DNA of 64,000 nucleotides from an uncultured Pseudomonadota bacterium (GTDB lineage: Bacteria > Pseudomonadota > Alphaproteobacteria > RF32 > CAG-239), in the NCBI GenBank assembly GCA_902494875.1, contig CABUUO010000001.1:192295-256294 (forward strand), written 5' to 3'. The notes under the pieces were generated by a model, which was not told the DNA's origin, searched no databases, and saw only the letters and a list, made by a program, of their open reading frames with translations. The position numbers were made by a program, and so were the translations under genes. Positions 1,087 through 64,000 of this stretch are shown piece after piece; the first letter of the stretch is position 1; every line of letters starts with the position of its first letter.

Positions 1087-4000
1087 TTAGTTCAATTTAT
1101 CCAACGCTCTGGCCAGAATATAATATACCTTGCCGATATCAGCGCCGGAAATGACCGACAGCAGAATGCCCGAACGTTCGTTGGTTCTGGCCTTGGTAAT
1201 AAGGGATTCAAACTCGGACAGATATTTGGTTACCAGCGTGCGAAACTCCATATTCTTTTCAAACTCGCCGCGGATGGCCAAAACCTGCTGTTTGGTCATG
1301 GTCTTGGAAAGGTAGCGTACAAAGGCCGCCGTATCGCCGTTATAGTACTTCTTCCAAATTTCTTCTTCCGCCGTCGGGTTAAAGATGCGGTTGATATCGA
1401 CCGAAGCGGTTTCCAGTTTTTCTATAATATAAGAAGCGTCTTTCAGGAAGCTGTCAACACGCACGCCCTCATAGCGTCTTTCAAGTTCGGCCAGCTTGCC
1501 GTCAGCCTTCTGTGAGGTCTCGTTCAAAACCTTAAGCTGTTTGTTGACAATATCGCTGAAAGAGATTGACTTTTTAATGATGTCGTCCCCTTTGGCCGAA
1601 AATTCGTTGGTACTGTCATTTAAGACATTCATAACATCGTTGACTTTTTTCAACGTATCGTCGGTTGCAACGACCAAAACGCCGGATTGTTTCAGGAAGA
1701 CTTCGCCCGAAGAACGGATTTCGTTGGAAATGCGCTCGGCATTGGCGGCAACTTCATTCAAGGTTGCGCGCAGTTTGCCGCTTGAGTTTTCAAAATGGGT
1801 GGAACTCATCTTGGTCGCCTCTTCCATCTGCATACTCAAAACTTTCAGGTTCTCGCCGAGGCCTTTGACCTTTTCATAGGCCATATTGGCACGGTTGGAA
1901 AGCTGGAGCGACGTATCGTTCAAAACGGTATTGAAACATTCCACCAGCTGCTTGGTATCTTCGGAAATCTTAATCATCTTGTCGCTCTGAGCGGAGATGA
2001 GATTGTTGATTTCAAAGACGCCGCTGCTGGCTTCAGCCGTAACCGTATTAAAGTTGGCTATGTATTTTTCATAATCTTTCATTACGTTGCCGATTTTGCT
2101 GCTGGAACTGTTAACGTTGACCGCCAAATCGTCAACCAGCTGGCTCAAGGACATGTTAACCTGCTCGACGTTCTTTATCGAATCACGGGAAGATTTGTTG
2201 ATGTCATCATTGACTTTAAGCAGCCTGTCACCCAGTACATTAAATTCATAGGCTATTTTGGCCGAAGTTTCAAATATGGTATCGGTACTGTTTTTGAAGT
2301 TGTTGTTGATTTCATTAACGCGCTGGGCAACTTCAGTCGAAGTGTCGGAAAGATATTTATACTGCTGCGCCAAAGAAGCCTCGCCCAAACGGGTTTGCGT
2401 CGCCACGGTATTGGCAATGTCGGTCAGAACCTCGCGCTGATGTTCGAAACTTTCGCGGATGGAATCCGTCTGGCTGACGGTCCGGTTTAAAATCTCGTCA
2501 ATATTTTTGGCCTGAGCATCCAAAACATCGGTCGTATTTTTGCTTTCAGCCGCCAAATTTTGATTGGCTGCATTAATCTTATCGCAGTTATCCAAAATAG
2601 AATTGGTAAACTCATCAGAACTGACTGTAAGATCTTTAACCGTATTGTTGAAAACCTGAAAGTTTTCTCTGAAAGCCGCGGCAATCTGCGCAATTTTATC
2701 GGAAATCTGCTGAATGAACTTGCTGACGTCATTGTTCTGCACGGCAATCGACTGATTAACCTCCGAAAGCTTGTCAATTGATTTGACGGAGTTGGCCACA
2801 ACCGCCTCAACTCTTTTGTTGACATCCTCTTCCAAAAGCGTCATCCGGGCGAAAACCTTATCGGCGTTCTGCTCAATGACGGCCACCTGTTTTTTGAGAT
2901 TGTTGCCCATATTGTCGGTGTTTTCGGTCAAGCGGTCGCAAATATTGAAAAATTCGTTTTCCTGCTGTTTGAACAACAGATTAATATTTTCAGCCTTTTC
3001 ATCCAAAAGCTGAACCACATCTGCCACATGGTTGACCGTTGCGCCGGTAATCTTGTCCAGCGTTTCATTCTGGCGGGCAAAAGCCTCCGTAATCTGCTGA
3101 AACGCGTTATCGGAGTTGGCAGTAGCAACATTGATGTTGGCAGCCTGTTTTTCCAAAACCTCGGACACATTCTCCGCACGTTCGGAAACACTCTGGGAAA
3201 CCTTATCCAGCTCCTGATAATGGTTGTTTAAAATACCGTCCATACGAATAACCTTATTCAAGGCCTGATCCGCCGTGTTGTCAAAAATGCCGGCCTGCTC
3301 GTTGAGGCTGGCACTGACCATTTTGGTCTTGGCGACAACGTCATTGCAGGAAGAAAGCGTTTCGCCCATCTGCTGTTTAAGCTGGCTGACAGTCGTTTCG
3401 GCTTCCTGCGTCAGATAAGACGCGGCGCGGGTCAACTCATCGATCTGATATTTGAGCTCAACTTTTATTTCTTCAATCCGGTTGACAGATTCCGCAATGT
3501 TTTTCTGCTGCTGAATCAAGGAATTTTCGCCAACCTTACTCTGAGCCACAACCAAGGACGCAGCCTCTTTAAGATTGTCGGTGTGTTTATTGATAACGCC
3601 GCCGATTTCCTCAAGTTCTTTTCTGGAAACATCTGCCTGTTCTTTCAGTCCGATGGTGCTGGCTCCGAGTTCCTGAAGCAGTAACTTCAAGTTCAGTACA
3701 ATACCGTCACTGACCTTCTGCAAAGTTTCACTGCGGCTTCCGACATCTTCGGACAACGCGGCAGACTTAGCCAGATGCTGTTCAGACAATGCCGATAATT
3801 TGGCGGTATTTTCTTCGGCCGAAGAAACCACATTCTGCATATTGTCAATAATTTCGGCTGAACGTTTTTCCAGAGTAACAGAACCGGCAGTCAGACGATT
3901 TTCCACGCCTTTAATATTGTCAAAAATCTCATCGGAAACGCCCTGAAGCTGATTAACCTGCGTGGCAACGCTCTCTTCTATCAAATTGGAACGAGCAATA

Positions 4001-5091
4001 ATCTTGTCGACTTCCATAGAAATCATGGCGTTGTGATCGCTGAATTTTGAAGTCAAAACGTCGCTTTCTTCATTCAGCTTGCCCAAATACCTTTCAACGG
4101 CTTCGCTCTGGCCGCGCAAAACTTCGTCAATTTTGTTAACACCGCCGTCTATCTTGCCATAGATGTCGTCGCAAACGGATACGGCGCCGTTGGCAACTTC
4201 TTCCAGCCGCGCCGTCTGAGAATCAAGTATCTGGATGACATTGTTTACGCTCTGAGCCGCCCGGTCTCCGAAATCAAGCAATGCCTGATTGGCCTTATCC
4301 ATTTTGGAATTGTTGTCATCGGCCATGCTTTGGAGCAACTGAGACGAGGTTTTGAGCTCTTGAATGTGGGGAATGATTTTGCCGAAAAGCTCGCCGCAGT
4401 TATTTTCCAGACCGGCCGCCGTGGCCGAAAAATCATTAATGTAACCCTTAAACATCTGAGTGGAATTCTGCGCACGTTCGGTCACATATTCAAAATTTTC
4501 AACCAGGGTTTTGACGCCGTCGGACAACTCGACAATCGTCTTGGTAGAATAATTGTCCAGCGTGTTGACAAGTTTGGAGAAATCGTTAACGCGGGCGCTC
4601 AGTTCCTTTTTTATCTTTTCGGTCTGCTCGGTTGCATGTTTGGTAACCTCATGGAGTTCAACCACCTGGGAACGGATGGCGTCAGCCATGGCTTTGGCGG
4701 TGTTGGCGCCGCCGTCTTCGGGATAAACGAGCTGATTCATATATGCGCGAAGGAATCTGGCTTCGTTCTTAAAACTGTTGCCGCGGTCAATATAAGCCAT
4801 AACAACCCAGATAATCGCCAAAGGCAGCGTTATGCCGGCCAGAAACGCACCGAACTCGTCGGGCATCATCAGGAAAAGGTTGGACCAGCCAAAAAACTGA
4901 GTAATGTAAATCAGTACGATGATAAACCAGATTACGCTGATGGAAATCATCAGCCTGGTCAGATTATTGTTTAACCAGCTTCCGTTTTCGGTTTCTTCGT
5001 TATAATTAATGCTGCTGGCTTCAGACATAAACCCCGGCAAAGACGAATCACTTTTGGCCGAGTTGTTATTGTCAACTTGTTGATTTGACAT
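1087..5091 (-). CDS. giant membrane-anchored coiled-coil protein, 1334 aa
   Basis: Track ORF. The N-terminus has two hydrophobic helices (ISISVIWFIIVLIYITQFFGW and FGAFLAGITLPLAIIWVVMAYI). About 1150 aa of heptad-like N/Q/E/K/S-rich helical sequence follows, then an approximately 90-aa C-terminal domain. Confidence 0.7.
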   Translation of the reverse strand: MSNQQVDNNNSAKSDSSLPGFMSEASSINYNEETENGSWLNNNLTRLMISISVIWFIIVLIYITQFFGWSNLFLMMPDEFGAFLAGITLPLAIIWVVMAYIDRGNSFKNEARFLRAYMNQLVYPEDGGANTAKAMADAIRSQVVELHEVTKHATEQTEKIKKELSARVNDFSKLVNTLDNYSTKTIVELSDGVKTLVENFEYVTERAQNSTQMFKGYINDFSATAAGLENNCGELFGKIIPHIQELKTSSQLLQSMADDNNSKMDKANQALLDFGDRAAQSVNNVIQILDSQTARLEEVANGAVSVCDDIYGKIDGGVNKIDEVLRGQSEAVERYLGKLNEESDVLTSKFSDHNAMISMEVDKIIARSNLIEESVATQVNQLQGVSDEIFDNIKGVENRLTAGSVTLEKRSAEIIDNMQNVVSSAEENTAKLSALSEQHLAKSAALSEDVGSRSETLQKVSDGIVLNLKLLLQELGASTIGLKEQADVSRKELEEIGGVINKHTDNLKEAASLVVAQSKVGENSLIQQQKNIAESVNRIEEIKVELKYQIDELTRAASYLTQEAETTVSQLKQQMGETLSSCNDVVAKTKMVSASLNEQAGIFDNTADQALNKVIRMDGILNNHYQELDKVSQSVSERAENVSEVLEKQAANINVATANSDNAFQQITEAFARQNETLDKITGATVNHVADVVQLLDEKAENINLLFKQQENEFFNICDRLTENTDNMGNNLKKQVAVIEQNADKVFARMTLLEEDVNKRVEAVVANSVKSIDKLSEVNQSIAVQNNDVSKFIQQISDKIAQIAAAFRENFQVFNNTVKDLTVSSDEFTNSILDNCDKINAANQNLAAESKNTTDVLDAQAKNIDEILNRTVSQTDSIRESFEHQREVLTDIANTVATQTRLGEASLAQQYKYLSDTSTEVAQRVNEINNNFKNSTDTIFETSAKIAYEFNVLGDRLLKVNDDINKSSRDSIKNVEQVNMSLSQLVDDLAVNVNSSSSKIGNVMKDYEKYIANFNTVTAEASSGVFEINNLISAQSDKMIKISEDTKQLVECFNTVLNDTSLQLSNRANMAYEKVKGLGENLKVLSMQMEEATKMSSTHFENSSGKLRATLNEVAANAERISNEIRSSGEVFLKQSGVLVVATDDTLKKVNDVMNVLNDSTNEFSAKGDDIIKKSISFSDIVNKQLKVLNETSQKADGKLAELERRYEGVRVDSFLKDASYIIEKLETASVDINRIFNPTAEEEIWKKYYNGDTAAFVRYLSKTMTKQQVLAIRGEFEKNMEFRTLVTKYLSEFESLITKARTNERSGILLSVISGADIGKVYYILARALDKLN

Positions 5092-16174: not shown

Positions 16175-18817
16175 CTAAAAACGATACTTTGCGTTAATCA
16201 TGCCGGTATGGTTCTGATAATCCTGCCGGAACTGTCCTTCATAACCAAATTCCGCTTCTAAGCGATCATTGACTTCGACCGAAAATCCGGCACCTATTTC
16301 CAGCCCCAAACGATGGAGCCGATCACCTTTGATGACGTATGACGAATTGTTGCTTAAGCCGACTAACGCATTATCGGTATCGGAAATAATATCATAAGTT
16401 AAGGCCAACCGTGCTTCGGGCTGCCAATTGGTTCCGTTGCAGGTTGTAAAGTTTTTTGCAACTCTGGCACCGGCAACTGCCGTTAAGACGTCCATCGTAC
16501 GGGAAGACACCCCCTGCCCCAGCGTATCCGTATAAGCTCCGCGGTCAATGCGGGCATAGCGCATTCCGCCTTCCGGCGTGACGTCAACATTGCCGACATT
16601 CAGTTCATAACCGCTCATCAATTGCAGTCCCAGCGTATCCGTATCATATTTAGATTTGACAATGCGGCCGTAAGCGCTTTTATGTTCTTTATAGTCAGCG
16701 AAGCTGTATGATGCGACAGCATTGAGATACCACTTTGACGGTTTATATTCTCCGTAAATAAAAATCGTATGCGTATCTATGTCCGTATCACGCAAAAAAC
16801 TTTCAACGTCGCTTTGGGTATATGCATAGCCCACACCTGCTTTGCTATTATCTCCGACAGCCTTTTCAAATCCCATGGCCACACCGCCGGATTTTGTATC
16901 AAAACCGTGCGTTTTAGAATTATCGTCAAGTTTTGATTTGTTCGCCAGCATCTGCACCCAGGAGGCTCCTTTATCAAAAATTCCGTCTCCGGCAGACATA
17001 CCGGGTAAAATGCCGGAGACAACGCCACCCGACAGCCTTGACGATACGGCATTAAAGACCTGAGAACTATGCTCGGTGGCAGCCGTTCTGGCTAACGGCG
17101 CGGCATCGGGAGCCAGAGCATAGGCTCCATCGACTATTTTTCCGCTGTCACTTCCGTTCTGAAGCGAAGTATTTATATAGTCCGCAATATCGTTAAAACT
17201 CTGATTGGAACCGTGACCGTTGGTAAAAGCATTGATGAGGCCGGCATTGTTTTTGCTCGTATTTAAAGCGCCTGCAATTTCCGTCTCTGTTTTCTTACCG
17301 CTGTAGAGTAATGAACCGTCATCGTTCAGTGCAAAATTGTAAAGATTATTGCTTATGTCAAATTTTCCTTCAATATGACCGCTTTGCAAGATGTCATAAC
17401 TGCCGATTTCCGTATCGGAATTAACTATCAGATTAAGCTTGGCGCCATCTTCAATGTTCAGTTCATCGGCTTTAATCGAAGCGTATTCAGAAGTGTCTTT
17501 TATACCGATATTCAGTTTGGAATTGCCGTTAAAGCTAATCGAACCGCCGGAGACCGAAGCTGTCGATGCCAGTGTAACTTCGGCATCGTTGACATTTATT
17601 TCTCCGTTGCCATCTATACCGCCGGTAAAAGATGTATGTCCGGATGAAATAGTCACTACGGAAGCATTATGAATATCATTTAATTTTCCGGCGGCGGTAT
17701 TGCCTTGAAAAATATTGTTCCCGCTCAAAGTCAGCGCTGCGTTTTTCTCTCCCCAAATAGCACCGCCGCTTGATGACGCTTTATTATTTATAAAAACGGA
17801 ATCTGAAATTTCCAATTGGCCGCCATTCCATTCTTCATTATATACAGCTCCGCCATTAACCGCCTGATTTTCTTCAAAACGCGTATTATAAATATGCATT
17901 TTTCCCTGATTATTAATCGCACCGCCTGAGGCATACCAACCGCCGGAGACCTTGTTATTGTAAAAATAGCTGTTGCGAATGGTCGTTTCGGCCGAAGGTC
18001 TGGCAAACAAAGCGCCACCCAAAGCCATAGATCCGACACTCACACTGTTATTGGCCATTATAACATTATCCAAATCGGCTTTACCGGCATTGGTTATTGT
18101 AGCATGAACCGTTCCACCACTTAAGCTGCTGCCCGAAATAGAAGAATCAAAAATTTTCAGGGAGCCGCCTTCTTTATTGAAAATTAACCCGGCATCCCCA
18201 TTGCTGACAAAATTGTACAAACCGCTTTTCTCATCAGCAGAATTACCGATATTTTCAAGGATAAGCTCTTTATCGCTATTTATAACAAAACCGATTTTGT
18301 TGTTGCCATTTATGGAATGACCGTTTCCATTAACAATTAAGACATCTGCACTCTGCCCCTCAATACTATTTTCTAAGGTTATATCACCGGTCAAATTAAT
18401 TTTTTCCGTACCGTTTTGTACCAGAAAAGAAAAATTTTTTCCGTTATCGGTAGTTACATCCCGGCTTAAAACCAAATGCAGAGTACTGTCTTTCCGGATG
18501 GAATAATCCTGAAGCGTATTGCCTGCCGCCAAACTGCTACCGGCAAAAGTCAACAGTTGGTTTTCCGGCGAAACACCTTCTTTATCATATATTTGGGCCA
18601 TAATATCTTCAATTCTGTCTGTCGGTTCGACTTCAAGGGTAATATGCTTGCCGCTCAGCGTTTTTACAAAAATCTGCATTGCCGAGGCATTTTCAGCACC
18701 AAGTATCATTACGGCAAACAATCCGGCATTAATCAACGCGCACTTCTTTAAAACGGAACGATATTTTGAAGTCAATACCTTTAAGGCGGTACGGGAATAT
18801 TTCATAAAGCTCTCCAT
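16175..18817 (-). CDS. autotransporter with an N-terminal ubiquitin-like domain and Pmp-type (GGA[ILV]/FxxN) passenger repeats
   Basis: 880 aa with an extended signal peptide. A 72-aa block, [72 protein letters not shown], is about 65% identical to eukaryotic ubiquitin by eye. It ends in LVLS, not LRLRGG. GGAI/FxxN repeats follow. The C-terminus ends ...NAKYRF, a typical terminal-Phe OM beta-barrel signature. Confidence 0.8.
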
Positions 18818-53838: not shown

Positions 53839-54030
53839 TTATTCTTGAGTAGCTGCTTTTTTAGCAACAACTTCGCGACTGTCATACTGTCCGCAGCTCG
53901 GGCAGACGTTATGAGGTCTCTTCAATTCGCCGCAGTTCGGGCACTCATGATAAGAATTTGCTTCTAAGGCATCATGAGAACGGCGCATATTGCGACGAGA
54001 TTTTGATGTTTTGTGTTTTGGTGTAGCCAT
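53839..54030 (-). CDS. rpmF: 50S ribosomal protein L32 (zinc-ribbon type)
   Basis: 63 aa; [22 protein letters not shown] with CPNCG...CPSCG. Confidence 0.9.
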
Positions 54031-54218
54031 TTTCTTATACTCTAGTTATTAAATTACACTTTTATTTTCTTAGCCATTAATAAACCAATTAGTTTTTTAA
54101 ATCAACTAATAAAACAAGGTTTATGAATTCTAGCTGACGTTTTATATAAAAATTTTGCATTTGGCAAGTCTTTTTTGCGGCAAAATGCCGCTTTATGCCG
54201 CCGGGATATACTTTAAAG

Positions 54219-54737
54219 TCATTTTTTAAGTTTTTTCAACACGCTGAACGGATTTAGCTTTTCCGAATCCTCGTCGTCGAATTCCGACTTGAAAACAAAA
54301 ACTTCGCCTTCCTTGCGGGGGTTGTCTTCCATAACCAAGGCCACCTGTTCAATGGCAATCTGGCCAAGATCTATCTGCCCGTTGACAACGACATCGGGCT
54401 CGTCTTCATTGAAATCAATCTCGAGTTCTTTGATTTCTTTCAGCGTAGCCTTGGTATCGAAACTGATTTTAAATTCAGGCGAATAGGTCTTGTAAAAATT
54501 TTCCAAGCTGATGACGCTTTTTAACTCCAACTCGGCATCTACCCGTCCCCAAACATCAAGGCGGTGTTCCTTTTTATACAGCTTGAGCATTATTTCGGCA
54601 CCAAAAGAACGCACCCCTTCAACCTGAAGCACATCTTTTAAATAATCCAACTCTTGTTTATCGGCATTCAGATGATATCTTCTTTCCGTTGAAGGAAGAT
54701 CATCTACAACGATAGGATAAGAAAAAAGATTTTGCAT
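54219..54737 (-). CDS. yceD: YceD/DUF177 family protein
   Basis: 172 aa, acidic; conserved position upstream of rpmF-plsX-fabH. Confidence 0.7.
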   Translation of the reverse strand: MQNLFSYPIVVDDLPSTERRYHLNADKQELDYLKDVLQVEGVRSFGAEIMLKLYKKEHRLDVWGRVDAELELKSVISLENFYKTYSPEFKISFDTKATLKEIKELEIDFNEDEPDVVVNGQIDLGQIAIEQVALVMEDNPRKEGEVFVFKSEFDDEDSEKLNPFSVLKKLKK

Positions 54738-54801
54738 TAATTTTTTCCATATGATATAAATTTACAAAAATCTTAAATGATATAACTGCAAGGAACCACA
54801 T

Positions 54802-55260
54802 ATGTCAATAAACAAAATACGTTTTCTGGGGCTGTTAGCGCTGTTTTCAATCTGCGGATGTTCCAACGACCTGTTTTTAACCCATAACGGCAATATGCCT
54901 TCCAACGAACGGATCGCCAAGGTAAAAGTAGGCGATTCAAAAAATCAGGTCATTTCACAGCTCGGCTCGCCCTCTTCCGTCGTATCTTTAGACCAGAATA
55001 CCTGGATATATATGTCGTCAGACATTAAGCGCGTGGCTTTCATGGCGCCCAAGGAAGTCAGCAGAGACGTTCTGACCATTGAATTTGATCCCAAAGGCAA
55101 AGTTGAAAACATTAAACGTCTGACCAAAAAAGACGGCGTTGAGGTTGCCGTCAGCGAGGAAAAAACCGACGCACTCGGTCATCAGCCCGGATTTTTTGAG
55201 AAATTTTTCGGCGGTATCGGCAACTATGCACCATTTCCGGGTATCAAAGATCAGATGTAG
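54802..55260 (+). CDS. bamE: outer-membrane lipoprotein BamE (SmpA/OmlA)
   Basis: 152 aa; lipobox LFSICGCS; SmpA/OmlA-like core; followed by a hairpin-T6 terminator. Confidence 0.65.
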   Translation: MSINKIRFLGLLALFSICGCSNDLFLTHNGNMPSNERIAKVKVGDSKNQVISQLGSPSSVVSLDQNTWIYMSSDIKRVAFMAPKEVSRDVLTIEFDPKGKVENIKRLTKKDGVEVAVSEEKTDALGHQPGFFEKFFGGIGNYAPFPGIKDQM

Positions 55261-55275
55261 TCCTTTAAATTTTCA

Positions 55276-55304
55276 GAAAAAGCGCCCCACAGGGCGCTTT
55301 TTTG
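55276..55304 (+). terminator. intrinsic terminator after bamE, at the boundary of the low-GC island
   Basis: A5-AGCGCCC-CACA-GGGCGCT-T6. Confidence 0.6.
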
Positions 55305-55468
55305 TTATATTTTATTCTACTTTTAGTTTTATTATGTATTTTTAATTGATATAAAATCACTTTTAAATTGCATTATTAAAAATAATAGGTATTATACCTC
55401 TGCATAGCCCCTGACCCGGGACAAAAACTTAAAGAAATACATTTTTTATGTTAGGCGTGTTCAGATAA

Positions 55469-56386
55469 ATGCAGAAAAAATATCCCCATAAAATTGCGGT
55501 TCAGATATTCGGCCATTTGCGCAGTTATAAAAACTGCATTTCCGCTCTGAAGAAAAATCTTTTGGATCGATATGACTGTGATGTATTTATGCATTGCTGG
55601 GACGTTTCGGACTACACTCAAAATACATCCGTCACTAAAGATGAGATTGCACATATTAAAAGTATGTACGCCTTAAAAGATTTTAAAATGGAATCTCAAA
55701 AAAAACATGAGCCCATGCGTATTCCGTGTCTCGCAACGAGCAAAGCACAGCACATTGACATTTATGCGATGAAAAATATGCTGTATTCAATGCAGCAGGC
55801 CAATCACCTGAGAAAACTGTATCAACAGAAAAAAAACATAAAATACGATATTGTTATCTGCATCCGCCCTGACATATATCTGAAGAGTCCCATCCCCCTT
55901 GATTTGTTTTTATCCGAAATGTCCGTTTTGGGCGCATCACTAAAAAACAAACGTTTTTGCGCTGTTAATTATAATAAGCGGCAAAAAAATTATATTTTAA
56001 GTACCGATTTGGCCAGTGACATTATAACCTTTGCAGAACAGGACACTATGGATGCCATTATATCGGCTCTGTCACAAATTGACTTTGTCAAAGAACAAAA
56101 ACGGTTTTGGAATCCGGAAAGTTTTTATTCTGCCGTTTTGGAAGAACACGGCATTTCGTCGTATGCCATTACCTATAATTATCGGGACAACTGGGAAATT
56201 ATGCGTCCCATATATTTAAAATCTTTGAATGTTCGGCGGCTGCGTAAAAAAATCATTAAAATTCATATCAACAAGCGGGAGCTGCGCGTTTTTTTATTTA
56301 ATTTCATTCCCAAAGAAGTTTTTAATTTTGAAGCCGTTTTTTTTGAGAAATTTACAATACAATTTTGCATAGGAATTCCGAAATGA
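55469..56386 (+). CDS. hypothetical protein, 305 aa; first gene of the low-GC island
   Basis: Track ORF in about 30% GC DNA; the stop overlaps the next start (ATGA). Confidence 0.5.
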   Translation: MQKKYPHKIAVQIFGHLRSYKNCISALKKNLLDRYDCDVFMHCWDVSDYTQNTSVTKDEIAHIKSMYALKDFKMESQKKHEPMRIPCLATSKAQHIDIYAMKNMLYSMQQANHLRKLYQQKKNIKYDIVICIRPDIYLKSPIPLDLFLSEMSVLGASLKNKRFCAVNYNKRQKNYILSTDLASDIITFAEQDTMDAIISALSQIDFVKEQKRFWNPESFYSAVLEEHGISSYAITYNYRDNWEIMRPIYLKSLNVRRLRKKIIKIHINKRELRVFLFNFIPKEVFNFEAVFFEKFTIQFCIGIPK

Positions 56387-58008
56387 CAAATACCATCATT
56401 TTATCTGCAGGAAAATTTAACCCCAAGAACATTTCAGCCGGCATGATCAGCGATCCCGGTTTGTTGCCAATCAGAGGTAAACCAGCTATCAACTGGTGCA
56501 TAGACTCTGCAATGAAAAACGGAGCTGAGAATATTAAAATTATTCTCAGAGAAAGCAATACGCGCCTCAGCCGCTTTCTAGGATACAGTTACCCCGAAGT
56601 TCAGCAGTATTTCATTGACAGCAACTCTGACTTTTCATCATCCGTATTGAACATTTTATCCGATTGCGACGAAAACCAGCCCACACAAATTATTCTCGGA
56701 GACACGCTTATTGACGAACCGTTTCCGGATGAGGCCGATGTTTTCTTATCTTCACCAAACATCAAAGCTTCCAAGCAATGGTGTCTGGTTACGAAAGACG
56801 ATCAAAACCATATTGAAAGAATATATAACAAAGAACGTGACATATCTATTGCCGGCAAAGAGGCCTTGGTTGGTTATTATAAATTTTCAGACACAGCCCT
56901 GTTAAAGAAACTCACCGCTCTGGAGTTAAAATCACCAAATTGCAGTTTTATTAACATTTTGCTCAATTATAACCGCAAACATCCGATTGTTATTAAAACG
57001 ACGCAGAGATGGTTCGACTTCGGCCATATCAGCGGCGCGGTTCAGGCCAGATTGGGATTGTTCAGCGCTAGGGAATTCAATTCGCTCAAAGTTGATGCCG
57101 TACGCGGAACCATTACCAAAATATCAAAGAAAAAACAAAAGCTTTTGGATGAGGCAAACTGGTATCAAAAACTTCCGGCGGACGTATCGTGTTACGCTCC
57201 CCGGGTTTTCAATGTTACCGAAACAGATGAACTTGCCAGCGTAGAAATGGAGCTTTACGGCTATGCCAATTTAGCAGAAACTTTTATTTACGGTTCCAAC
57301 AATCTGGAAGACTGGTACAACATTATTGAAGCGTTGTTAAAGGTGCATAAAGTCTTTGAAAATTATACCGAACCACAAAACAAAGAAGAGCTGGAAGAAA
57401 TTTACCGCAGCAAAACCCGGCAAAGAATAAATGACATTCAGAACAAAAATCCTGAAATTGCCAAAATGATGCAAAGCGATTATTTATCCATCAATAATGT
57501 TCATTATAAAAATTATCCTTTGTTGAAAAAAAGCCTAGATAAAGAAATTGATGCTCTGACAAACTATCCCAAAAGGACAATTGTCCATGGAGACTATTGT
57601 TTTTCCAATATTTTATTTGACCCGATGCATTATATTTTCAAACTGATTGATCCCCGCGGCAGATTCAAAACGCAAAGTATTTACGGAGATCCCCGTTATG
57701 ATATTGCAAAACTTCGCCACAGCATCGTCGGACTGTATGATTTTATAGTCGCCGGATTATACAAATTGAAAATTGCGGCTCCGGACGTATATGAATTTCA
57801 AATTTCTACGCCGATTTTAACTGAAAAGCTCGAACCTTTCTTTGACGAACTGGTTGTTGAATACGGATATGACCGCAGAGAAATAAAACTTATTGAGGCT
57901 CTGCTCTTTTTAACCATGATTCCTCTGCATGCCGACGACGTTAACAGACAAAAAGCTTTTTACCTTACTGCAATTCAAAAACTAAACGAGGTTTTATATG
58001 ATGAATAA
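56383..58008 (+). CDS. bifunctional nucleotidyltransferase / APH-choline-kinase-like kinase fusion
   Basis: The real start is MTNTIILSAGKFNP. The N-terminal ~230 aa are sugar-phosphate nucleotidyltransferase-like. The C-terminal ~300 aa carry the kinase catalytic loop HGDYCFSNILFD and IDPRG of the APH/ChoK fold. Confidence 0.55.
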   Translation: MTNTIILSAGKFNPKNISAGMISDPGLLPIRGKPAINWCIDSAMKNGAENIKIILRESNTRLSRFLGYSYPEVQQYFIDSNSDFSSSVLNILSDCDENQPTQIILGDTLIDEPFPDEADVFLSSPNIKASKQWCLVTKDDQNHIERIYNKERDISIAGKEALVGYYKFSDTALLKKLTALELKSPNCSFINILLNYNRKHPIVIKTTQRWFDFGHISGAVQARLGLFSAREFNSLKVDAVRGTITKISKKKQKLLDEANWYQKLPADVSCYAPRVFNVTETDELASVEMELYGYANLAETFIYGSNNLEDWYNIIEALLKVHKVFENYTEPQNKEELEEIYRSKTRQRINDIQNKNPEIAKMMQSDYLSINNVHYKNYPLLKKSLDKEIDALTNYPKRTIVHGDYCFSNILFDPMHYIFKLIDPRGRFKTQSIYGDPRYDIAKLRHSIVGLYDFIVAGLYKLKIAAPDVYEFQISTPILTEKLEPFFDELVVEYGYDRREIKLIEALLFLTMIPLHADDVNRQKAFYLTAIQKLNEVLYDE

Positions 58009-58384
58009 TGAAAAAAAGTTGAGAATATGCATAGATCTTGACGGAACAATCTGCGAGATCAGAAAAGATCCTCAAACTTATGCCGACGTTAAGGCCAAGC
58101 CCGGTGCCAAAGAACGTATTCATGCGTTAAGGGCCGCCGGCCATACCGTTATTATCAATACTGCACGCAATATGGGATCAACCGGACATAATGTCGGCAA
58201 GGCTCTAAAAAATGTCGGTAAGATGACTTTTGAATGGTTAGAGAAAAACGGAATTGAATATGACGAGATATTTTTCGGCAAACCTAATGCAGATATTACC
58301 ATTGATGACCGAGTTGTCCGTTTTGAAGACAACTGGGAAGAAATGACAGAAGATGTGTTAAATAAAGCTGCAAAAGCGAAATAG
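57998..58384 (+). CDS. small HAD-superfamily phosphatase
   Basis: 128 aa; DxDGT motif (CIDLDGTIC), later GKPN and IDD motifs; overlaps the upstream gene by 11 nt. Confidence 0.55.
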   Translation: MMNNEKKLRICIDLDGTICEIRKDPQTYADVKAKPGAKERIHALRAAGHTVIINTARNMGSTGHNVGKALKNVGKMTFEWLEKNGIEYDEIFFGKPNADITIDDRVVRFEDNWEEMTEDVLNKAAKAK

Positions 58385-58392
58385 GTGTTAAA

Positions 58393-59112
58393 ATGTTAAA
58401 TATTGTAATTCCGATGGCCGGTGCCGGCAGCCGTTTCAAAGCGCAAGGCTATGATTTGCCCAAGCCGTTTATTGACATTAACGGCAAAATGATGATTGAG
58501 CATGTTCTTGACGGTATAAACTATCCGAACGCACACTATACCCTGATTATTCAAAAGCAATTTGAAACAGAAAATCGTGACCAGTTGGAAAAACTTTCCA
58601 AACACTATCATGTTGCGTTTCTTTCTGTTGACAAACTGACACAAGGAGCTTGCTGCACGGCTCTGGCCAGCCATGAAATCATCAACAACAATCTTCCCGT
58701 TATTTTTGCAGATTCTGATAATATTTTTGATAATCTGGCCTTTCAAAATTTTGTCAAAGACTGTTTGGATCGGAAGCTCGACGGCAGTCTGCTTACATTT
58801 AACACGCAAGAGGCTTGTTTTTCTTTTGTGGAAACGGATGAGAACGGCTATGCCCTGCGAACAAAAGAAAAAGAAGTTATCTCCAATCATGCAATTACGG
58901 GAGTTTATATGTTTCGCCGCGGAGCCGATTTTGTAAAAAACGCTATAGACATGATGATATACGGCGATAAGGCAAAAAATGAATATTACATGAGCAATGT
59001 CTATAATCACGCAATAAAAAACGGAGCTCAAATAGGCATTTATGACATTCATGTTCAAGACTGGGCGTGTGTCGGCACCCCCGAACAATTGAAAAAATAT
59101 CTGGGAGACTGA
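58393..59112 (+). CDS. sugar-phosphate nucleotidyltransferase
   Basis: 239 aa; N-terminal MLNIVIPMAGAGSRF and C-terminal DWACVGTPEQL match the NDP-sugar pyrophosphorylase fold signature. Confidence 0.7.
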   Translation: MLNIVIPMAGAGSRFKAQGYDLPKPFIDINGKMMIEHVLDGINYPNAHYTLIIQKQFETENRDQLEKLSKHYHVAFLSVDKLTQGACCTALASHEIINNNLPVIFADSDNIFDNLAFQNFVKDCLDRKLDGSLLTFNTQEACFSFVETDENGYALRTKEKEVISNHAITGVYMFRRGADFVKNAIDMMIYGDKAKNEYYMSNVYNHAIKNGAQIGIYDIHVQDWACVGTPEQLKKYLGD

Positions 59113-59113
59113 A

Positions 59114-61089
59114 ATGCATAGTACCCTCTCCGAAACCCATTTGTTCATTCTTTGGCCGAACGGAAGACAAAAAGAAAAAGAAGTTATGGAAATTGTAAAG
59201 AAAAATTTCCAGATTTTGAAGCTTTATGAAATATTATGGTCGCAAGATAAAATTTTAGATAACTACACTTCCTTTTACGGCTTTGACCACTCTCAAAACC
59301 ACAACATAATCAATGAGCGAGGGGGGGGTATTTTCTACTTATGATTGTTAGAGACAATAATCCAAAGTACGAAAACAGAATGACTTCAAAAGGAATGGTT
59401 CCTGTTAACATTAATACATCAGATGTTAAATCATATATCAGAAATGTTATTTTTCAGGGAATAAACCTGCTTCATGGAACCAACTCTGAAGAAGAAACCA
59501 GACATGACTTAGCTCTGTTACTGGGACGCAGCCTTTCTGACTTTTTAAAAGAAACCAAACTTGATGGGGCATTAGAAAAATTATCTCAAAATCTTCCGGC
59601 AGTAGACGGATGGAAAAGTCTTTCTCAGGTATTTTATATTCTTAATGAAACATGCAGATACGCTGTTTTGAGAGGTTTTGAAAAACTTCCAGGCAATTTT
59701 ACTCCTTTTGACGGGGATATCGATCTTTTGATTGAAGACCCTCAGTGCTTTACTTATACCTTAATGTCAGCCCAGTCTGACGGTTCCAATGATTTCGCTT
59801 TTGCCAATTTAGTAAAAGTTAAAGACAGTATTTTCAGTTTTCATACCAAATATATAGGCGACGGTTATTATGACACCCGGATGTCGCAAAAAATTATTGA
59901 CACGAGACAAAAAAATAAAGCAGGCATTTATATTCCGTCTGATGAAATGTATTTTTACGAACTTTTATACCATGGCATTATACATAAAACCAATTATTTA
60001 AAATATGCTGACATTTTTAAAACCTTGGCTTCAGAATTAAAAATAGAAAAATTTAACCTAGAGTTTTCTTATTTAAAAAAACTGATAAATACGTGGCTGA
60101 AAAACAACAATTACAAATGCCCTCTTCATTTAGACCATACGAGAAGCAGGCATAATGAGAACATATCCGAAAAAAAACTGATAAAAGATATTCCCGATAT
60201 ATATATTTATCAAAATCATACGGATACAATCATCTTCAGTTCTTTATTAATAGCACGGCATCCGGGCCTAGCCTCCAGATATACAAAAATATGCGGTCCT
60301 TATCATAATTGGCAGCAGCATCTCTTGTCTCCGGAACATAAACTTTACAAAGAGATGTCTCGTAAGGCGGCAAAGGGACAAATTGCCTGGATTTTCAAAA
60401 AAAGATTTGGCCGGATAATGTTGACGACATTGACGGTAAAATCCGGAGAAACCATTTTTACCAGAAAGATATTAGGAACCCCGCAAGATATTGAATCTCC
60501 ATATCTGATTGTCACGGCAGATAAAAAAAGGAAATTTATTGCCGGAAACAACGTAGGAAATATCTTAAGTTCAATAAAAGATTCAAATATTCTCAAGATA
60601 GAACTGGAGAAATTCGTTGGTGAAGTTTTTTCGCAGTATCGTACCGGCAATGCTGCTTTATTGCAGCCAAACGCATGGGATGCCGTACCTCATAATTGCA
60701 TTTTAACCAATGAAAACAATTATTGTTTTTTTGATTTTGAGTATTCATTAAAACACGGCGTTGACAAGTCATATATGCTATGGAGAATTATCCGTCATAC
60801 CAATATGATAATACAAGACAAATTTTCTCTATATGATGAATTCTGCAAAAAGTTTAATCTTGAAAATAAGTTTTTCTGGTGTGAATTTCTGGATGCTAAA
60901 ATTCATGAAAGGCTCTTAGACGCATACTCTATGCCTCCGAGTTTTATTAATAAAATAAAAAAGTTTTTAATTAATCTGACGGTTACACCAATCGCTCAAA
61001 AAAATTTACGAGATAAATACAGAAAAAAACTGGAACGTCATTTTCTTTTTTTCAACCAAAAATTATGGAAAAGATATTTTATTAACTAG
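59114..61089 (+). pseudogene. large hypothetical protein split by a G8 homopolymer (76-aa ORF plus 582-aa ORF); G9 would give one 658-aa product
   Basis: ORF 59114..59344 is in frame 2 and ORF 59341..61089 is in frame 1. The frame-1 reading is open from 59317, across the G tract at 59321-59328. Inserting one G fuses ...NERGGG to YFLLMIVRDNN... without a stop. Confidence 0.55.
59321..59328 (+). repeat. poly-G homopolymer (G8), candidate slipped-strand phase-variation tract
   Basis: GGGGGGGG in a region of roughly 30% GC; its length determines the reading frame of the 658-aa gene. Confidence 0.6.
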
Positions 61090-61105
61090 CAAATGAGAGG
61101 TTTTA

Positions 61106-61923
61106 ATGAATAAAAATAAAATTTATAATAAGCTTATAAAGTTATTATCTTATTTCATTCCGCTGTCAAATAACAGAAAAAACTTTCGTAAAAAATTTCT
61201 AAAAAACAACATTTGTGCTGATGTTTCTTCCAGTATAGTAAATTATGGTCATAACAACATTGTAAAATTAATTCTGGAAAATGGTGAAGAAATTATAAAT
61301 CCTGCTATTTCTGGCCTAAAAATCATATTTTACGGAAATAATAATCTGGTTGTCTTGCATTCTCCAATTCAATTTCGGGCATCTACATTTGAGATGCAGT
61401 CTGATTCTTTGATTAACATACAAAAAAGCAAATATTTTTTATGTAATCTAAATATTTCTCCTATGAACAATAATACACTATTAATAGGCAGAGATTTTTC
61501 CTGTTCATCTGTTAATATCCGTTTACATGATGAACCCAAGCTTACTGTTAAAATAGGCGATGATTGTATGTTTTCTCATGATATTGAAATTCGTTCGAGT
61601 GATGGGCATACAATATTAAACAGAAAGACAAAAGAGATATTAAATCCAGCAACAGACATTAAAATTGGCAACCATGTTTGGATTGGCATGAGATGTATTT
61701 TATTAAAAAATACACAAATTCCAGATCATTCTATACTCGGCGCTAATTCTCTCATAAATAAATCTTTTTCCGCCTCACACAACCGGGGGGGGTGGTTATT
61801 GCAGGGATACCCGCCAAGATTGTCAAGAACGATATTGTTTGGCTTAGGCACAGTACAAATCTAGCCTCTGAAGAAATTATAGACGATTTCTACAAAGAAT
61901 ATAAAATTAATATGAAGGAATAA
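61106..61923 (+). pseudogene. hexapeptide-repeat (left-handed beta-helix) acetyltransferase truncated by a G8 tract; G9 would give a 272-aa product
   Basis: The track ORF ends ...SHNRGGWLLQGYPPRLSRTILFGLGTVQI*. The +1 frame after the tract reads VVIAGIPAKIVKNDIVWLRHSTNL...KINMKE*, the canonical C-terminus of LbH acetyltransferases. The upstream part has IKIGNHVWIGMRCILLKNTQIPDHSILGANSLI hexapeptide repeats. Confidence 0.65.
61785..61792 (+). repeat. poly-G homopolymer (G8), candidate slipped-strand phase-variation tract
   Basis: GGGGGGGG followed by TGG; inserting one G restores the acetyltransferase C-terminus. Confidence 0.6.
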
Positions 61924-61927
61924 TAGT

Positions 61928-63148
61928 ATGAAGACGCTACAGAAAGCTATAATTACGCCAACTTTTTCAGGACATTTTGGTTATATAAAAAACTATTTAA
62001 AAAGTTTCGATCGTTATCTTATAGATCGTGATTTTCCAATATTTTTTATTATAAATAAAAATGAAAACAGTATTTTTTCTCCTATTATCCAAAAGTACCG
62101 TAATCGTTTAAATTTAAATGTAATTTTTCTTGATGATATTTTTGAACATTTCAAAATTGACGAAACACCGGAAGAAGCCTTAAGCAAATATGGACGTTTA
62201 TCTTTTCAAACATTAAAAAAATTTTACGGGGCATTATACGTTAATGCTAAAGAATTTTTATTTCTTGATTCAGAGAGTATGTTAATAAAACCAACGAACA
62301 TATCTCTGCTTTTCGATGATTATTTTAAAAAACCAACATTTTTTATTTCTCGAATATCTGAGAGGGCTCAAGGCTTCAAAGAAAACTTTACATATGAATT
62401 TTTAAATGCGGTTACAAACCTTTTAGGAAAAAAACCAGAGTACTGGAGTATTGAATCTTATGAATGGTTTTATAAACTAGACATATTGAAAGATCTGATA
62501 AATGATTTGGGAACACCTATCGAAATTGTAAAGAACTATAAAATGCCCGGTAAGTTTCCAAATATCGAAGGAATTCTGGAAGCTCTTCTTTATTATCAAT
62601 ATATTTTATACCACAATGACAAATACGGCTATACAATCAAAATAATAGAAGATGAGCTCAGAGAAGCTCTGGGAGATAATAACTATAAGAGATTCCGTCA
62701 GTATTTTGACAAATCGCCCTTTTTTATATGTGGCGTTTTAGAAACGGCAATGTTTTTTATCGATAAGGACAATGCTGATGGTTTCATTCATTTCCTAAAC
62801 AAATATAAAATCCGTTTATTACGTGTAGAAGATCCTAAAATTAACAATGCAACGGCCCAAATAAAAATAATTAAGAATACGGGAATTCATATTTGTCCAT
62901 CTTCTCAGAACCATATCTTTGGAATAAACAGTACAATAAAAAAACGTTTCAATATACTGATAGGAAATAACAGAAATATTCAAAAACTGAAAAAACATTT
63001 TACTAAATTTGCCAAACCATTCATTTTTATTTGCAAGCCATTTCTGGCTACGATTAAATGGATGTTTGAAATTATTCCCATTTGCATTTATTCATTGAAA
63101 TCATTGAATATCGTTTTGAAAAATCTAAAAAATATATTGTTTGGGTGA
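61928..63148 (+). CDS. hypothetical protein, 406 aa (possible glycosyltransferase-like)
   Basis: Track ORF in the island; no motif I can name with confidence. Confidence 0.45.
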   Translation: MKTLQKAIITPTFSGHFGYIKNYLKSFDRYLIDRDFPIFFIINKNENSIFSPIIQKYRNRLNLNVIFLDDIFEHFKIDETPEEALSKYGRLSFQTLKKFYGALYVNAKEFLFLDSESMLIKPTNISLLFDDYFKKPTFFISRISERAQGFKENFTYEFLNAVTNLLGKKPEYWSIESYEWFYKLDILKDLINDLGTPIEIVKNYKMPGKFPNIEGILEALLYYQYILYHNDKYGYTIKIIEDELREALGDNNYKRFRQYFDKSPFFICGVLETAMFFIDKDNADGFIHFLNKYKIRLLRVEDPKINNATAQIKIIKNTGIHICPSSQNHIFGINSTIKKRFNILIGNNRNIQKLKKHFTKFAKPFIFICKPFLATIKWMFEIIPICIYSLKSLNIVLKNLKNILFG

Positions 63149-63157
63149 TTTGCAAAA

Positions 63158-64000
63158 ATGACTAATATACAAAAATCAGACATCACATTCATATGCAGCG
63201 GCAAGATATTTGCAGGAAAAAAATTTAATACTCTTGCATCAATAAAATCCGTAAAAAAATATTTTCCTGAATCCAAGATAATTCTTTCGACATGGGAAGG
63301 AGAAAATATTGAGCCTTTTGAAAAATTCTGTGATTTAATAATATTAAATCCATGCATGGAAATGAAATATCATACTTGTTTGGAATCATGTTCTTGGTAC
63401 CCTAAATTGAATTCTTATGATTTGCAGCAAAAGAGCGTCAATGCCGCATTACGACAATGTAAAACTAAATATGCCGTTCGGTTCAGAACCGATTTTGTTC
63501 TTAAAAATGACAACTTTTTAAAAAAGTACATTGAATTTGAAAATATCTTTGATCGGTTTGTACCTGAATATAAAATATTTCAGAACAAAGTTCTGATTCA
63601 TCAAACCGGAACAATTTCTCCTTATACCAAAGATGTTCCGATGCTTCATCATCCTTCAGAATTATTCCATTTTGGTCTAACTGAGGATTTATTGAAAATA
63701 TGGACCGGAAAGAATATGCCAGAAAAGATTGCAGATTACTTTCATGATGAAAACCATAATGAGAGCAATCCGTGTCTTTTTAATCATAGATATACACCAG
63801 AACAGTATATTTGGTTAAAAATGCTTGATGATTCCGGTGTCGGCTACGAAAAACCGGACTATTATCTTTCCTTTTCCGAAAAAATGAGACAAGAACAAGA
63901 CAGGCTTTTCATTTCTAATTTCATTATTCTTGATGCGCAAGGCTTGGGAATATCATCGAAATTTGATGAAAAATTGAAACATGTACAACATCGTTTTTAT
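63158..64000 (+). CDS. hypothetical protein, 5' part; the ORF is open to the window end
   Basis: ATG at 63158, which I translated by hand as MTNIQKSDITFICSGKIFAGKKFNTLASIKSVKKYFPESKIILSTWEGENIEPF... The frame stays open to 64000. It is absent from the track because it has no stop in the window. Confidence 0.5.
   Translation, partial: MTNIQKSDITFICSGKIFAGKKFNTLASIKSVKKYFPESKIILSTWEGENIEPFEKFCDLIILNPCMEMKYHTCLESCSWYPKLNSYDLQQKSVNAALRQCKTKYAVRFRTDFVLKNDNFLKKYIEFENIFDRFVPEYKIFQNKVLIHQTGTISPYTKDVPMLHHPSELFHFGLTEDLLKIWTGKNMPEKIADYFHDENHNESNPCLFNHRYTPEQYIWLKMLDDSGVGYEKPDYYLSFSEKMRQEQDRLFISNFIILDAQGLGISSKFDEKLKHVQHRFY

Follow-up and report, generated by a model that had tools for sequence, protein, structure and literature searches.

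A length-variable G tract as a likely on/off switch in a NeuO/OatWY-like O-acetyltransferase gene of an uncultured alphaproteobacterial lineage

Described repeat switches and their likeness to the locus

To our knowledge, work on phase-variable O-acetylation has been confined almost entirely to pathogens such as E. coli K1, Neisseria, Campylobacter and pneumococcus. The products of pglI (Neisseria) and wciZ (Streptococcus pneumoniae) are membrane acyltransferase-3-type enzymes, not soluble hexapeptide-repeat (LbH) trimers, and the wciZ repeat is a TA dinucleotide. The protein-glycan O-acetyltransferase gene pglI is switched via an intragenic G tract (PMC5445459, PMC9187656), and wciZ is a reversible O-acetylation switch of serotype 15B/15C that operates by slipped-strand mispairing (PMC4432689). 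The LbH enzyme NeuO, a polysialic-acid O-acetyltransferase encoded by prophage CUS-3 of E. coli K1 (PDB 3jqy), is phase-variable by slipped-strand mispairing within its coding sequence, which gives rise to full-length or shortened protein (PMC3046976, PMC9659370). In PMC3046976 we found no account of a repeat-based switch inside the gene for the related capsule O-acetyltransferase OatWY of Neisseria meningitidis serogroups W and Y (PDB 2wlc-2wlg). In Campylobacter jejuni, a single A/T-rich surface-polysaccharide cluster has several G8-G11 tracts within its glycan-modifying genes, and these switch independently, generating combinatorial 'phasotypes'; the portion of the source drawn on here names eight capsule/LOS genes, including the glucosyltransferase gene wlaN and the methyltransferase gene cj1426, and describes no acetyltransferase among them (PMC8437040). 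G-tract slippage is also described in a gut commensal, Bifidobacterium breve, in which an intragenic tract (G9-G12) fuses two ORFs of pilus genes (PMC9187656).

The locus described here was found in the window, i.e. the whole stretch of 64,000 nucleotides that was analysed, to which all coordinates refer (+ strand). It contains two G8 tracts, designated T1 and T2. T2 lies in an acetyltransferase gene and, as in pglI and wciZ, slippage within the gene would toggle O-acetylation of a glycan. The slippage-switch mechanism is already well known, and the T2 acetyltransferase is a further case in an uncultured alphaproteobacterial lineage. Its predicted product is of the same LbH enzyme type as NeuO and has in common with it the active-site residues M, H, W, W and R, but the two proteins are only ~21-23% identical (Foldseek alignments). 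Both genes are accessory, and neuO was horizontally acquired. The switch of neuO is a 5' heptanucleotide VNTR (AAGACTC), the copy number of which also tunes activity, whereas T2 is a G run near the 3' end of the gene, in the part that encodes a surface loop; because of this position the OFF form is, unlike that of NeuO, nearly full-length, minus its last 43 residues. Neither sialic-acid genes nor a prophage context was seen at the T2 cluster. OatWY is the best solved relative and its catalytic residues are conserved in the T2 protein, which differs in an extra N-terminal region of ~70 aa, with two helices predicted in the AlphaFold model, and in a 4-residue loop insertion that bears the tract. 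The intragenic poly-G device and its layout are the same as in the C. jejuni capsule/LOS clusters (cj1420-cj1437, wlaN and others); the lineage and the gene families are different, and here two tracts occur in 64 kb. The B. breve system is a gut-commensal precedent, but in another phylum and with pilus genes, not glycan modification, as the target.

The G tract, its reading frames and its length alleles

The original prediction, made from the window alone, was of a G8 tract truncating the acetyltransferase. By direct reading, the tract sits exactly at 61785-61792, where it spans codons 227-229 (CGG GGG GG.) of an ORF at 61106..61864. A likely ribosome-binding site, GAGAGG (61095..61100), is found 5 nt before the ATG at 61106. 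The ORF encodes a 252-aa OFF form (identical to P0001, with Hexapep/LbH matches), in which residues 1-229 are genuine and the final 23 aa are out-of-frame junk, terminating in ...NRGGWLLQGYPPRLSRTILFGLGTVQI* as had been proposed. The proposed +1-frame C-terminus was likewise borne out: this frame reads (V)VIAGIPAKIVKNDIVWLRHS... to a stop at 61921-61923, and insertion of one G gives a protein of 272 aa. The true C-terminus (VVIAGIPAKIVKNDIVWLRHS...KINMKE*; 61792..61923) is in frame in P0097 (L005, L006, L094), and the codons for W246 (61840-61842) and R248 (61846-61848) lie inside this continuation, 3' of T2. Frames were computed for each tract length; G9 is ON and both G8 and G10 are OFF.

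The two G8 tracts are the only G runs of at least 6 nt in the 64 kb, where G5 occurs five times and G6 and G7 not at all. Their number is not significant, since dinucleotide shuffles of the whole window gave a mean of 1.0 G8/C8 run, and at least two in 26/100; under a local first-order model of the low-GC last 10 kb, 0.02 G8 runs are expected. What makes the tracts special is that their length is polymorphic in other assemblies, not how many there are.

Length variation was scored in the window and in 11 more public assemblies, which share 97.9-99.9% identity with it, that is, in 12 sources, all of them consensus assemblies from different samples. T2 is G8 in seven (the window, L001-L004, L093 and L009), G9 in three (L005, L006 and L094) and G10 in two (L007 and L008), so that the allele is OFF in 9/12 sources. 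L009 belongs to a diverged lineage (97.9% identity); G8, G9 and G10 are all present on backgrounds that are 99.7-99.9% identical. The three products, of 252 aa (G8), 272 aa (G9) and 247 aa (G10), fall in one protein cluster, and the predicted 272-aa ON protein is found verbatim in public assemblies (P0097). Across 6.9 kb and eight haplotypes, 30 SNP sites were counted and indels occur at the two G tracts only, the length of the 17 A/T runs of 7-8 nt within this region being constant. A single haplotype group contains G8, G9 and G10, which hints at recurrent change. A scan of JGI metagenomes with a DNA pattern across T2 gave no match, and the acetyltransferase gene is absent from the GTDB species-representative genomes, in which the nearest matches are 42-43% identical.

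Since near-identical genomes carry 8, 9 or 10 G's, a slippage on/off switch is indicated. Two features that characterize contingency loci, a repeat in coding sequence that sets the reading frame and a repeat-length polymorphism that exceeds other indels, were both found at T2. We consider it likely, and hold with good confidence, that T2 is a simple-sequence contingency switch in a surface-glycan O-acetyltransferase gene and that it is OFF in the window.

The acetyltransferase and the proposed switch

The Pfam Hexapep model (PF00132) matches residues 184-219 (36.3 bits against a cut-off of 27, E 3.9e-9), and alignments to the WbbJ, LacA and Maa profile models span T2, through residue 242. In searches of PDB sequences the best match was OatWY (2wlc, E 1.7e-23), aligned over query residues 71-264 and to the last OatWY residue, followed by NeuO (3jqy, E 6e-21); LacA was the next family (E 1.4e-9). 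It had been proposed that the G9-repaired protein would align to maltose, galactoside or capsule O-acetyltransferases; a hexapeptide O-acetyltransferase of the capsule type was recovered, but the maltose/galactoside enzymes are not the closest. With the AlphaFold model (pLDDT 78) as query, Foldseek also ranked OatWY and NeuO first. It returned 51 matches at E <= 0.001, and nearly all of the best 50 are LbH-fold proteins (O- and N-acyltransferases and gamma-type carbonic anhydrases). TM-scores reach only a moderate level (0.4-0.6), owing to lower confidence in the central part of the model. On these sequence and model matches, the T2 gene is that of a hexapeptide-repeat (LbH) O-acetyltransferase closest to the NeuO/OatWY capsule type.

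Five active-site residues are conserved in the alignment to the two solved enzymes: M155, H168, W192, W246 and R248, which correspond to M134, H147, W171, W220 and R222 of NeuO and to M108, H121, W145, W195 and R197 of OatWY (roles in these enzymes from PMC3046976). The codons of H168, the predicted catalytic histidine (61607..61609), and of W192, the conserved acetyl-CoA-site tryptophan (61679..61681), are upstream of T2, and both residues are invariant in an alignment of 20 homologues. The C-terminus recovered by a +1 G had been called canonical and the conserved end of LbH O-acetyltransferases, and both descriptions hold: the added G brings back G234, P236 and W246, all invariant in the 20 homologues, and restores the active-site pair W246/R248. 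As both residues of the pair follow T2, the G8 and G10 forms are without them. No match to sialic-acid synthesis or capsule-export families was obtained among the seven proteins of this cluster. The enzyme probably acts like NeuO and OatWY, on a different acceptor glycan.

The switch would operate as follows. Slipped-strand mispairing at replication would add or remove a G. With a G count divisible by three, of which G9 is the one observed, read-through would produce the 272-aa LbH O-acetyltransferase; with G8 or G10 the frame would shift at codon 229/230 and the final beta-strands and helix, with W246 and R248, would be lost. In NeuO the equivalent C-terminal element also forms the trimer interface. 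Because active-site residues and this interface element are lost together, the OFF form is expected to be inactive and the glycan to remain unacetylated. Switching would be rapidly reversible within a population, and its benefit would be escape from antibodies or phages specific for one form of the glycan, acetylated or unacetylated. Phase-variable O-acetylation alters the bacterial surface that antibodies and phages meet.

If T2 is read as G9, 10/10 sources have an intact coding sequence, which is identical among the nine close ones; dN/dS against L009 is ~0.34, a value from only 16 substitutions. These data were weighed against decay of an accessory gene, in which the G run would be a mutational hot spot, the G8 and G10 forms pseudogenes, and no reversible switching would have been selected. 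Although 9/12 sources are out of frame, the acetyltransferase gene is missing altogether from many otherwise near-identical strains and the cluster is a low-GC variable island, we regard decay as improbable: the tract aside, neither a stop codon nor a frameshift is present in any of the ten sources, ON alleles occur, and the 2%-diverged lineage has kept an uninterrupted tract despite altered flanking codons. A 42%-identical homologue also bears a G tract in the corresponding loop, family members repeatedly show tracts at many positions, and the upstream gene of the same cluster bears the same device (see below), all of which argue in the same direction.

Homopolymer runs are sites of RNA polymerase slippage, and G GGG GGT fits the X XXY YYZ slippery pattern in the zero frame. 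Both would favour recoding, by which G8 would still yield full-length enzyme through -1 frameshifting or transcriptional slippage and the OFF state would be leaky or absent; this reading is less probable again, in that DNA-level length polymorphism already accounts for ON and OFF, the G10 alleles are left unexplained, and no stable 3' RNA structure was predicted (MFE -15.1 kcal/mol, z = +0.55; 137/200 shuffles fold as well). That the true genome is G9 and the G8 of the window a miscall is hardly credible. Homopolymers are error-prone and G tracts difficult for Illumina sequencing (PMC9187656), but seven contigs from NCBI, ENA and Logan assemblies carry the same G8 product, the three length classes recur across independent samples, and the A/T runs of the same 6.9 kb do not vary.

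Natural ON and OFF alleles are now documented in an uncultured alphaproteobacterial lineage, and such switches are legible directly in public metagenome assemblies. Genes of this sort are liable to be mis-annotated as truncated or as pseudogenes, and one assembly is insufficient to infer the strain-level surface chemistry of such commensals.

The upstream tract, homologues in other lineages and neighbouring genes

Two G8 switches within 2.5 kb, turned on by the same +1 change, had been claimed. T1 is at 59321..59328, 2464 bp upstream of T2, and encodes the conserved RGxG motif of a 658-aa protein (G70 invariant, G72 in at least 90%). In the window T1 is G8 (OFF) and the gene (59114..61089) is split into a 76-aa ORF (59114..59344) and a 582-aa ORF (59341..61089) with an ATGA overlap; G9 (ON) joins the two ORFs into 658 aa, in agreement with the claim. 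Gene calls from other assemblies include the intact form, of 658 aa or, with a later start, of 634 aa, and homologues cover 99% of the length of the protein. By sequence the T1 protein had no match in Pfam, NCBIfam or PDB; a fold search with its model gave an NDK-like fold in the N-terminal part, in which H121 is invariant, and a kinase-like part C-terminally. T1 would switch its gene independently of T2, 2.46 kb away, and together the two tracts would produce four surface states. The pair makes a simple marker for within-host population dynamics.

Both switches are inside a low-GC (30-39%) surface-glycan gene cluster (55469..64000). Its genes encode a DUF7796-like protein, an APH-type phosphotransferase (kinase) domain protein with an additional weak N-terminal nucleotidyltransferase-like match, a capsule-type HAD phosphatase, a nucleotidyltransferase, the T1 protein, the acetyltransferase and a 406-aa protein. 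Full-length loci show that the cluster extends past the window, with two WavE genes.

Tracts were also found in homologues of the acetyltransferase gene. L104, a 42%-identical homologue whose gene cluster resembles that of the window, carries G11 in the loop that holds T2, and its ON lengths are G10 or G13. G/C runs of at least 8 nt are enriched in the homologous genes of other taxa, which make up 4.7% of the sequence but contain 7/19 of these runs (binomial p = 1.5e-5). Tract-bearing homologues belong to Gastranaerophilales (L012, with two paralogues, and L042), Candidatus Adamsella avium (L041), Muribaculaceae (L058), Lachnospiraceae (L039), Spirochaetia (L027) and another Alphaproteobacterium (L014), and four further contigs bear tracts (L104, L105/L106, L108 and L140). 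They come mostly from gut or rumen metagenome-assembled genomes, and the homologues hint at a gut habitat for the lineage of the window too. Their tracts, G/C runs of 8-14 nt at about eight codon positions, in most cases put the gene out of frame as deposited; neighbouring glycan genes often carry tracts as well. A Gly triplet does not always reflect a tract, for G runs do not underlie the GGG motifs of homologues P0055 and P0058. The occurrence of tracts at about eight different positions suggests repeated evolution of switches, and we give an even chance to the family being a repeated target of homopolymer switches across distant, mostly gut-associated lineages. If the homologue tracts are real switches, stochastic on/off O-acetylation of surface glycans would serve uncultured gut commensals generally as a source of diversity, one that has gone unrecognised so far.

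A phage origin, as for neuO, was considered and rejected: 31 homologues are on IMG/VR contigs, yet the window cluster is without phage genes. L108 is the sole tract carrier among the IMG/VR homologues and is flanked by oxidoreductase, radical-SAM and FkbM methyltransferase genes, with no phage genes.

The acetyltransferase gene is part of a cassette (61105..61944) that is absent from strains ~99.7% identical to the window (L095 and L098, compared with the window by blastn), in which ~28 bp are found in its place. In these strains the product of the downstream gene begins MNNDINMLERAIITP..., as against MKTLQKAIITP... in the window. The downstream gene of the window (61928..63148) encodes the 406-aa protein; its translational coupling to the acetyltransferase gene may differ between phases, because its ATG is 4 nt past the stop codon of the ON form but 63 nt past that of the OFF form.

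Tract reading frames and natural length variants

The plus strand of the window reads ...CACACAACC GGGGGGGG TGGTTATTGCAGGG..., in which a run of exactly eight guanines (T2) at 61785-61792 encodes residues 227-229 of an acetyltransferase. The ORF at 61106..61864 specifies 252 aa and ends in NRGGWLLQGYPPRLSRTILFGLGTVQI; in the +1 frame the tract is followed by (V)VIAGIPAKIVKNDIVWLRHSTNLASEEIIDDFYKEYKINMKE with the stop codon at 61921-61923, and computed insertion of one G into the G8 run gave a protein of 272 aa. Direct reading and the computed insertion bore out the original prediction of a G8 tract, an out-of-frame end and a 272-aa product in the +1 frame. A second, nearby G8 tract (T1, 59321-59328) is located in the upstream gene (59114-61089) and, as had also been proposed, is turned on by one additional G, which fuses ORFs of 76 and 582 aa into one of 658 aa. 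T1 and T2 were the only G runs longer than 5 nt in the window. As a bare count, two G8 runs are weak statistics (at least two G8/C8 runs were found in 26 of 100 whole-window dinucleotide shuffles; under a local model of the low-GC last 10 kb the expectation was only 0.02), and the case was therefore rested on other evidence.

The decisive evidence was provided by natural length variants of T2. At 90% identity, the window product falls in a protein cluster of four sequences (two of 252 aa, one of 272 aa and one of 247 aa), and the 272-aa member (P0097) was identical to the computed G9 repair. Contigs were fetched for the cluster proteins and for neighbouring window genes, yielding eleven further assemblies, the loci of which carry L-numbers. 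T2 was G8 in L001, L002, L003, L004, L093 and L009 (the last of a more diverged lineage, at 97.9% identity), G9 in L005, L006 and L094, and G10 in L007 and L008. At T1, the window and L098 had G8, most loci had G9, with which the gene was annotated at 658 aa or, from a later start, at 634 aa, and L002, L009 and L004 had G10, the frame being kept in L004 by a T-to-G change. The loci matched the window at 99.7-99.9% identity over 10 kb. When eight haplotypes were aligned over 6.9 kb, there were 30 SNP sites and gaps at T1 and T2 only; none of the 17 A/T runs of 7-8 nt in this stretch varied, which speaks against miscalling of homopolymers in general. Two haplotype groups were defined by the SNPs, one with G8, G9 and G10 at T2 and the other with G8, G9 and G10 at T1. 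Tract lengths have thus changed repeatedly, on a time scale comparable to that of the few SNPs separating the genomes. With T2 set to G9, the coding sequence was intact in 10/10 sources, and the dN/dS ratio against L009 was ~0.34, a value only indicative because 16 substitutions lie behind it.

T2 is best explained, and in our judgement quite probably, by replication slippage at a contingency tract. Slippage during replication would alter the length of T2, G9 or any multiple of three giving the full-length protein (ON) and G8 and G10 causing loss of frame at the tract (OFF). The ATG of the next gene lies 4 nt after the ON stop versus 63 nt after the OFF stop, so that translational coupling to this 406-aa gene could also differ by phase. 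Pseudogenisation at a mutational hot spot would fit the preponderance of OFF alleles and a dispensable acetyltransferase gene, but is unlikely given that the ORFs are otherwise intact, that ON alleles exist, that the tract is kept in diverged relatives and that a parallel switch is present upstream at T1. Recoding, by frameshifting or transcriptional slippage, is distinctly improbable: the T2 motif is slippery, but RNA structure was not found 3' of the tract (z = +0.55). An assembly error is hardly credible, since the same alleles were found again in independent assemblies in which the A/T runs were stable.

The acetyltransferase and the loop encoded by T2

The repaired 272-aa protein scored above the Pfam Hexapep threshold, and the NCBIfam WbbJ, LacA and Maa models aligned to residue 242, passing through residues 227-229. 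A search of all PDB sequences gave two capsule O-acetyltransferases as the best matches by a wide margin, OatWY from N. meningitidis (E 1.7e-23) followed by NeuO from E. coli K1 (E 6e-21). Residues 71-264 of the query aligned with OatWY, up to the final residue of its chain. The predicted assignment to the hexapeptide, left-handed beta-helix (LbH) O-acetyltransferases was thereby upheld. OatWY and NeuO were also retrieved first with an AlphaFold model (mean pLDDT 78), with only moderate TM-scores.

The alignments were projected onto residues in or beside the NeuO active site as described (PMC3046976). By this mapping, M155 corresponds to NeuO M134 and OatWY M108, H168 to H147 and H121, W192 to W171 and W145, W246 to W220 and W195, and R248 to R222 and R197, respectively. 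In NeuO, the strand and helix after the beta-helix form the trimer interface (PMC3046976). Across 20 aligned family sequences, G234, P236 and W246 were invariant and A237 and R248 were present in at least 90%; all five are encoded 3' of T2. The G8 form retains the histidine and the first tryptophan and lacks two active-site residues and the equivalent of the NeuO trimer interface, from which loss of enzyme activity can be strongly inferred.

T2 is located in a tolerant loop. In the family alignment, the segment from '...KSF..E' to 'N.VIAG.PAK' was four residues shorter in most homologues than here, and the R-G-G encoded by T2 was part of the insertion; model confidence was 72 at residues 221-230 versus 96 on both sides. 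In L009, three of the six amino-acid changes fall directly before T2, in the adjacent codons of residues 223-225 (A223T, S224R and H225C; L009 10667-10674, equivalent to window 61772-61779), with G8 retained, a local burst of change adjoining a conserved tract.

The upstream gene and the glycan cluster

The 658-aa form of the T1 protein was conserved over its whole length in homologues sharing 38-46% identity and had no match in Pfam, NCBIfam or PDB sequences; more distant relatives were GT2 or GT8 glycosyltransferase fusions or had a protein-kinase Pfam match. T1 codes for the glycines of an RGxG motif (G70 invariant, G72 in at least 90% of homologues), and the run was probably built through codon choice on these required residues. 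A confident model (pLDDT 90) had an N-terminal nucleoside-diphosphate-kinase (NDK)-like fold of ~140 residues (Foldseek E ~1e-3, target TM-scores 0.5-0.6) and, elsewhere, a weak choline/ethanolamine-kinase-like match. H121 is invariant and lies within HGTNSEEE, which we take to resemble HGSDS, the catalytic motif of NDK. With G8 at T1, the stop of the 76-aa ORF overlaps the start of the 582-aa ORF (ATGA), so that a split product is conceivable.

The cluster containing T1 and T2 is tightly packed on the plus strand at 30-39% GC, against 42-52% in the rest of the window. The drop, from ~42-52% at 1-54000 to 30-39% at 54001-64000 across the glycan cluster, suggests horizontal acquisition. Longer contigs placed the cluster between bamE and mfd. 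Its members encode a DUF7796-like protein, an APH-type phosphotransferase (kinase) domain protein whose N-terminal part has a weak nucleotidyltransferase-like match, a HAD phosphatase (matching a 'capsule biosynthesis phosphatase' model below the curated cut-off), a nucleotidyltransferase, the T1 protein followed by the acetyltransferase, and the 406-aa protein of unassigned function; two WavE-family LPS genes continue it past the window. Export or sialic-acid genes were not recognised among the cluster genes, which makes an LPS/LOS-type or other surface glycan more likely as acceptor than a polysialic capsule.

The acetyltransferase gene is an accessory, presence/absence cassette: several ~99.7% identical strains (L095 8723-8750, L098) have ~28 bp in place of ~61105-61944, and no obvious repeats flank the cassette. 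In cassette-less strains the downstream gene product begins MNNDINMLERAIITP (410 aa), and the window version MKTLQKAIITP (406 aa). Other strains (L096, L100, L101, L103) carried different gene sets downstream of the 656/658-aa T1 gene, either a 586-aa WavE-Hexapep fusion or a 385-aa protein together with an additional WavE gene. This cluster is a hot spot for gene-content variation.

Tracts in distant homologues and known switches

Distant acetyltransferase homologues, many of them from gut and rumen metagenome-assembled genomes, were scanned in 80 loci (26-48% identity, 1.4 Mb). Seven of the 19 G/C runs of at least 8 nt fell inside the homologous genes, which made up 4.7% of the scanned sequence (binomial p = 1.5e-5). 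Tract positions were obtained by frame-by-frame inspection and taxa from record titles. Two tandem paralogues in L012 (Gastranaerophilales; 7977 and 8761) have G10 and G8 just before the IGNHVW motif, both out of frame; directly before the same motif, L058 (Muribaculaceae; 10266) has an in-frame G10. Near residue 118, L041 (Candidatus Adamsella avium; 10003) and L042 (Gastranaerophilales; 9995) have out-of-frame tracts of unequal length (G12 vs G11) with identical flanks. C14 was found near residue 140 in L027 (Spirochaetia; 8741), C8 in the N-terminal region in L014 (another Alphaproteobacterium; 9918) and, just outside the counted intervals, G10 ahead of the LbH domain in L039 (Lachnospiraceae; 9910). 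In-frame tracts were present in L105 (1007) and L106 (G8 at codons 19-21) and in L140 (G9 at codons 82-84), where both neighbouring genes have tracts as well, of G9 and G11 (the three L140 tracts are at 1562, 2244 and 3284). In the IMG/VR contig L108 (3528), an out-of-frame G9 lies five codons after the T2 position.

The 42%-identical homologue in L104 has an out-of-frame G11 in exactly the T2 loop. Its cluster, of low GC and from another organism, resembles that of the window (HAD, two nucleotidyltransferases, acetyltransferase, two WavE genes) and contains four G10-G11 tracts (1417, 5378, 6035, 7229), one being that in the acetyltransferase loop; both WavE paralogues have G10 at the same site. 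Overall, the homologue tracts were 8-14 nt long, at many positions and mostly out of frame; some of these frame states, coming as they do from assembled genomes, may be wrong, and a number of the tracts are related by descent. By frame inspection, the GGG motif was not coded by a G run in two homologues, and the device is not universal. The number of distinct tract positions gives roughly even odds that homopolymer switches were acquired repeatedly and independently in this family, and this wider pattern is the part most worth following.

The system resembles NeuO in being an accessory LbH O-acetyltransferase with a slippage switch inside its own coding sequence (PMC3046976; PMC9659370). In repeat type, a G tract, it resembles Campylobacter jejuni, in contrast to NeuO; several G8-G11 tracts in C. 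jejuni capsule and LOS modification genes generate combinatorial surface states (PMC8437040). Neisseria pglI, a glycan O-acetyltransferase, is under poly-G control (PMC5445459; PMC9187656), pneumococcal wciZ is under slipped-strand control (PMC4432689), and G-tract switches are present in the gut commensal Bifidobacterium (PMC9187656). The mechanism is not new; the gene, the host lineage and the 3'-proximal tract position, by which only the last 43 residues are removed, are.

As to the host, an uncultured lineage, the only named ParC relative was an Alphaproteobacteria MAG at 83% identity, and the plsX-fabH-ihfA-merR gene neighbourhood is in keeping with this class.

Elsewhere in the window, the minus strand carries a 1334-aa ORF (1090-5091) with no NCBIfam match at E <= 1e-20 and an 880-aa ORF (16178-18817) with a C-terminal autotransporter beta-barrel domain.
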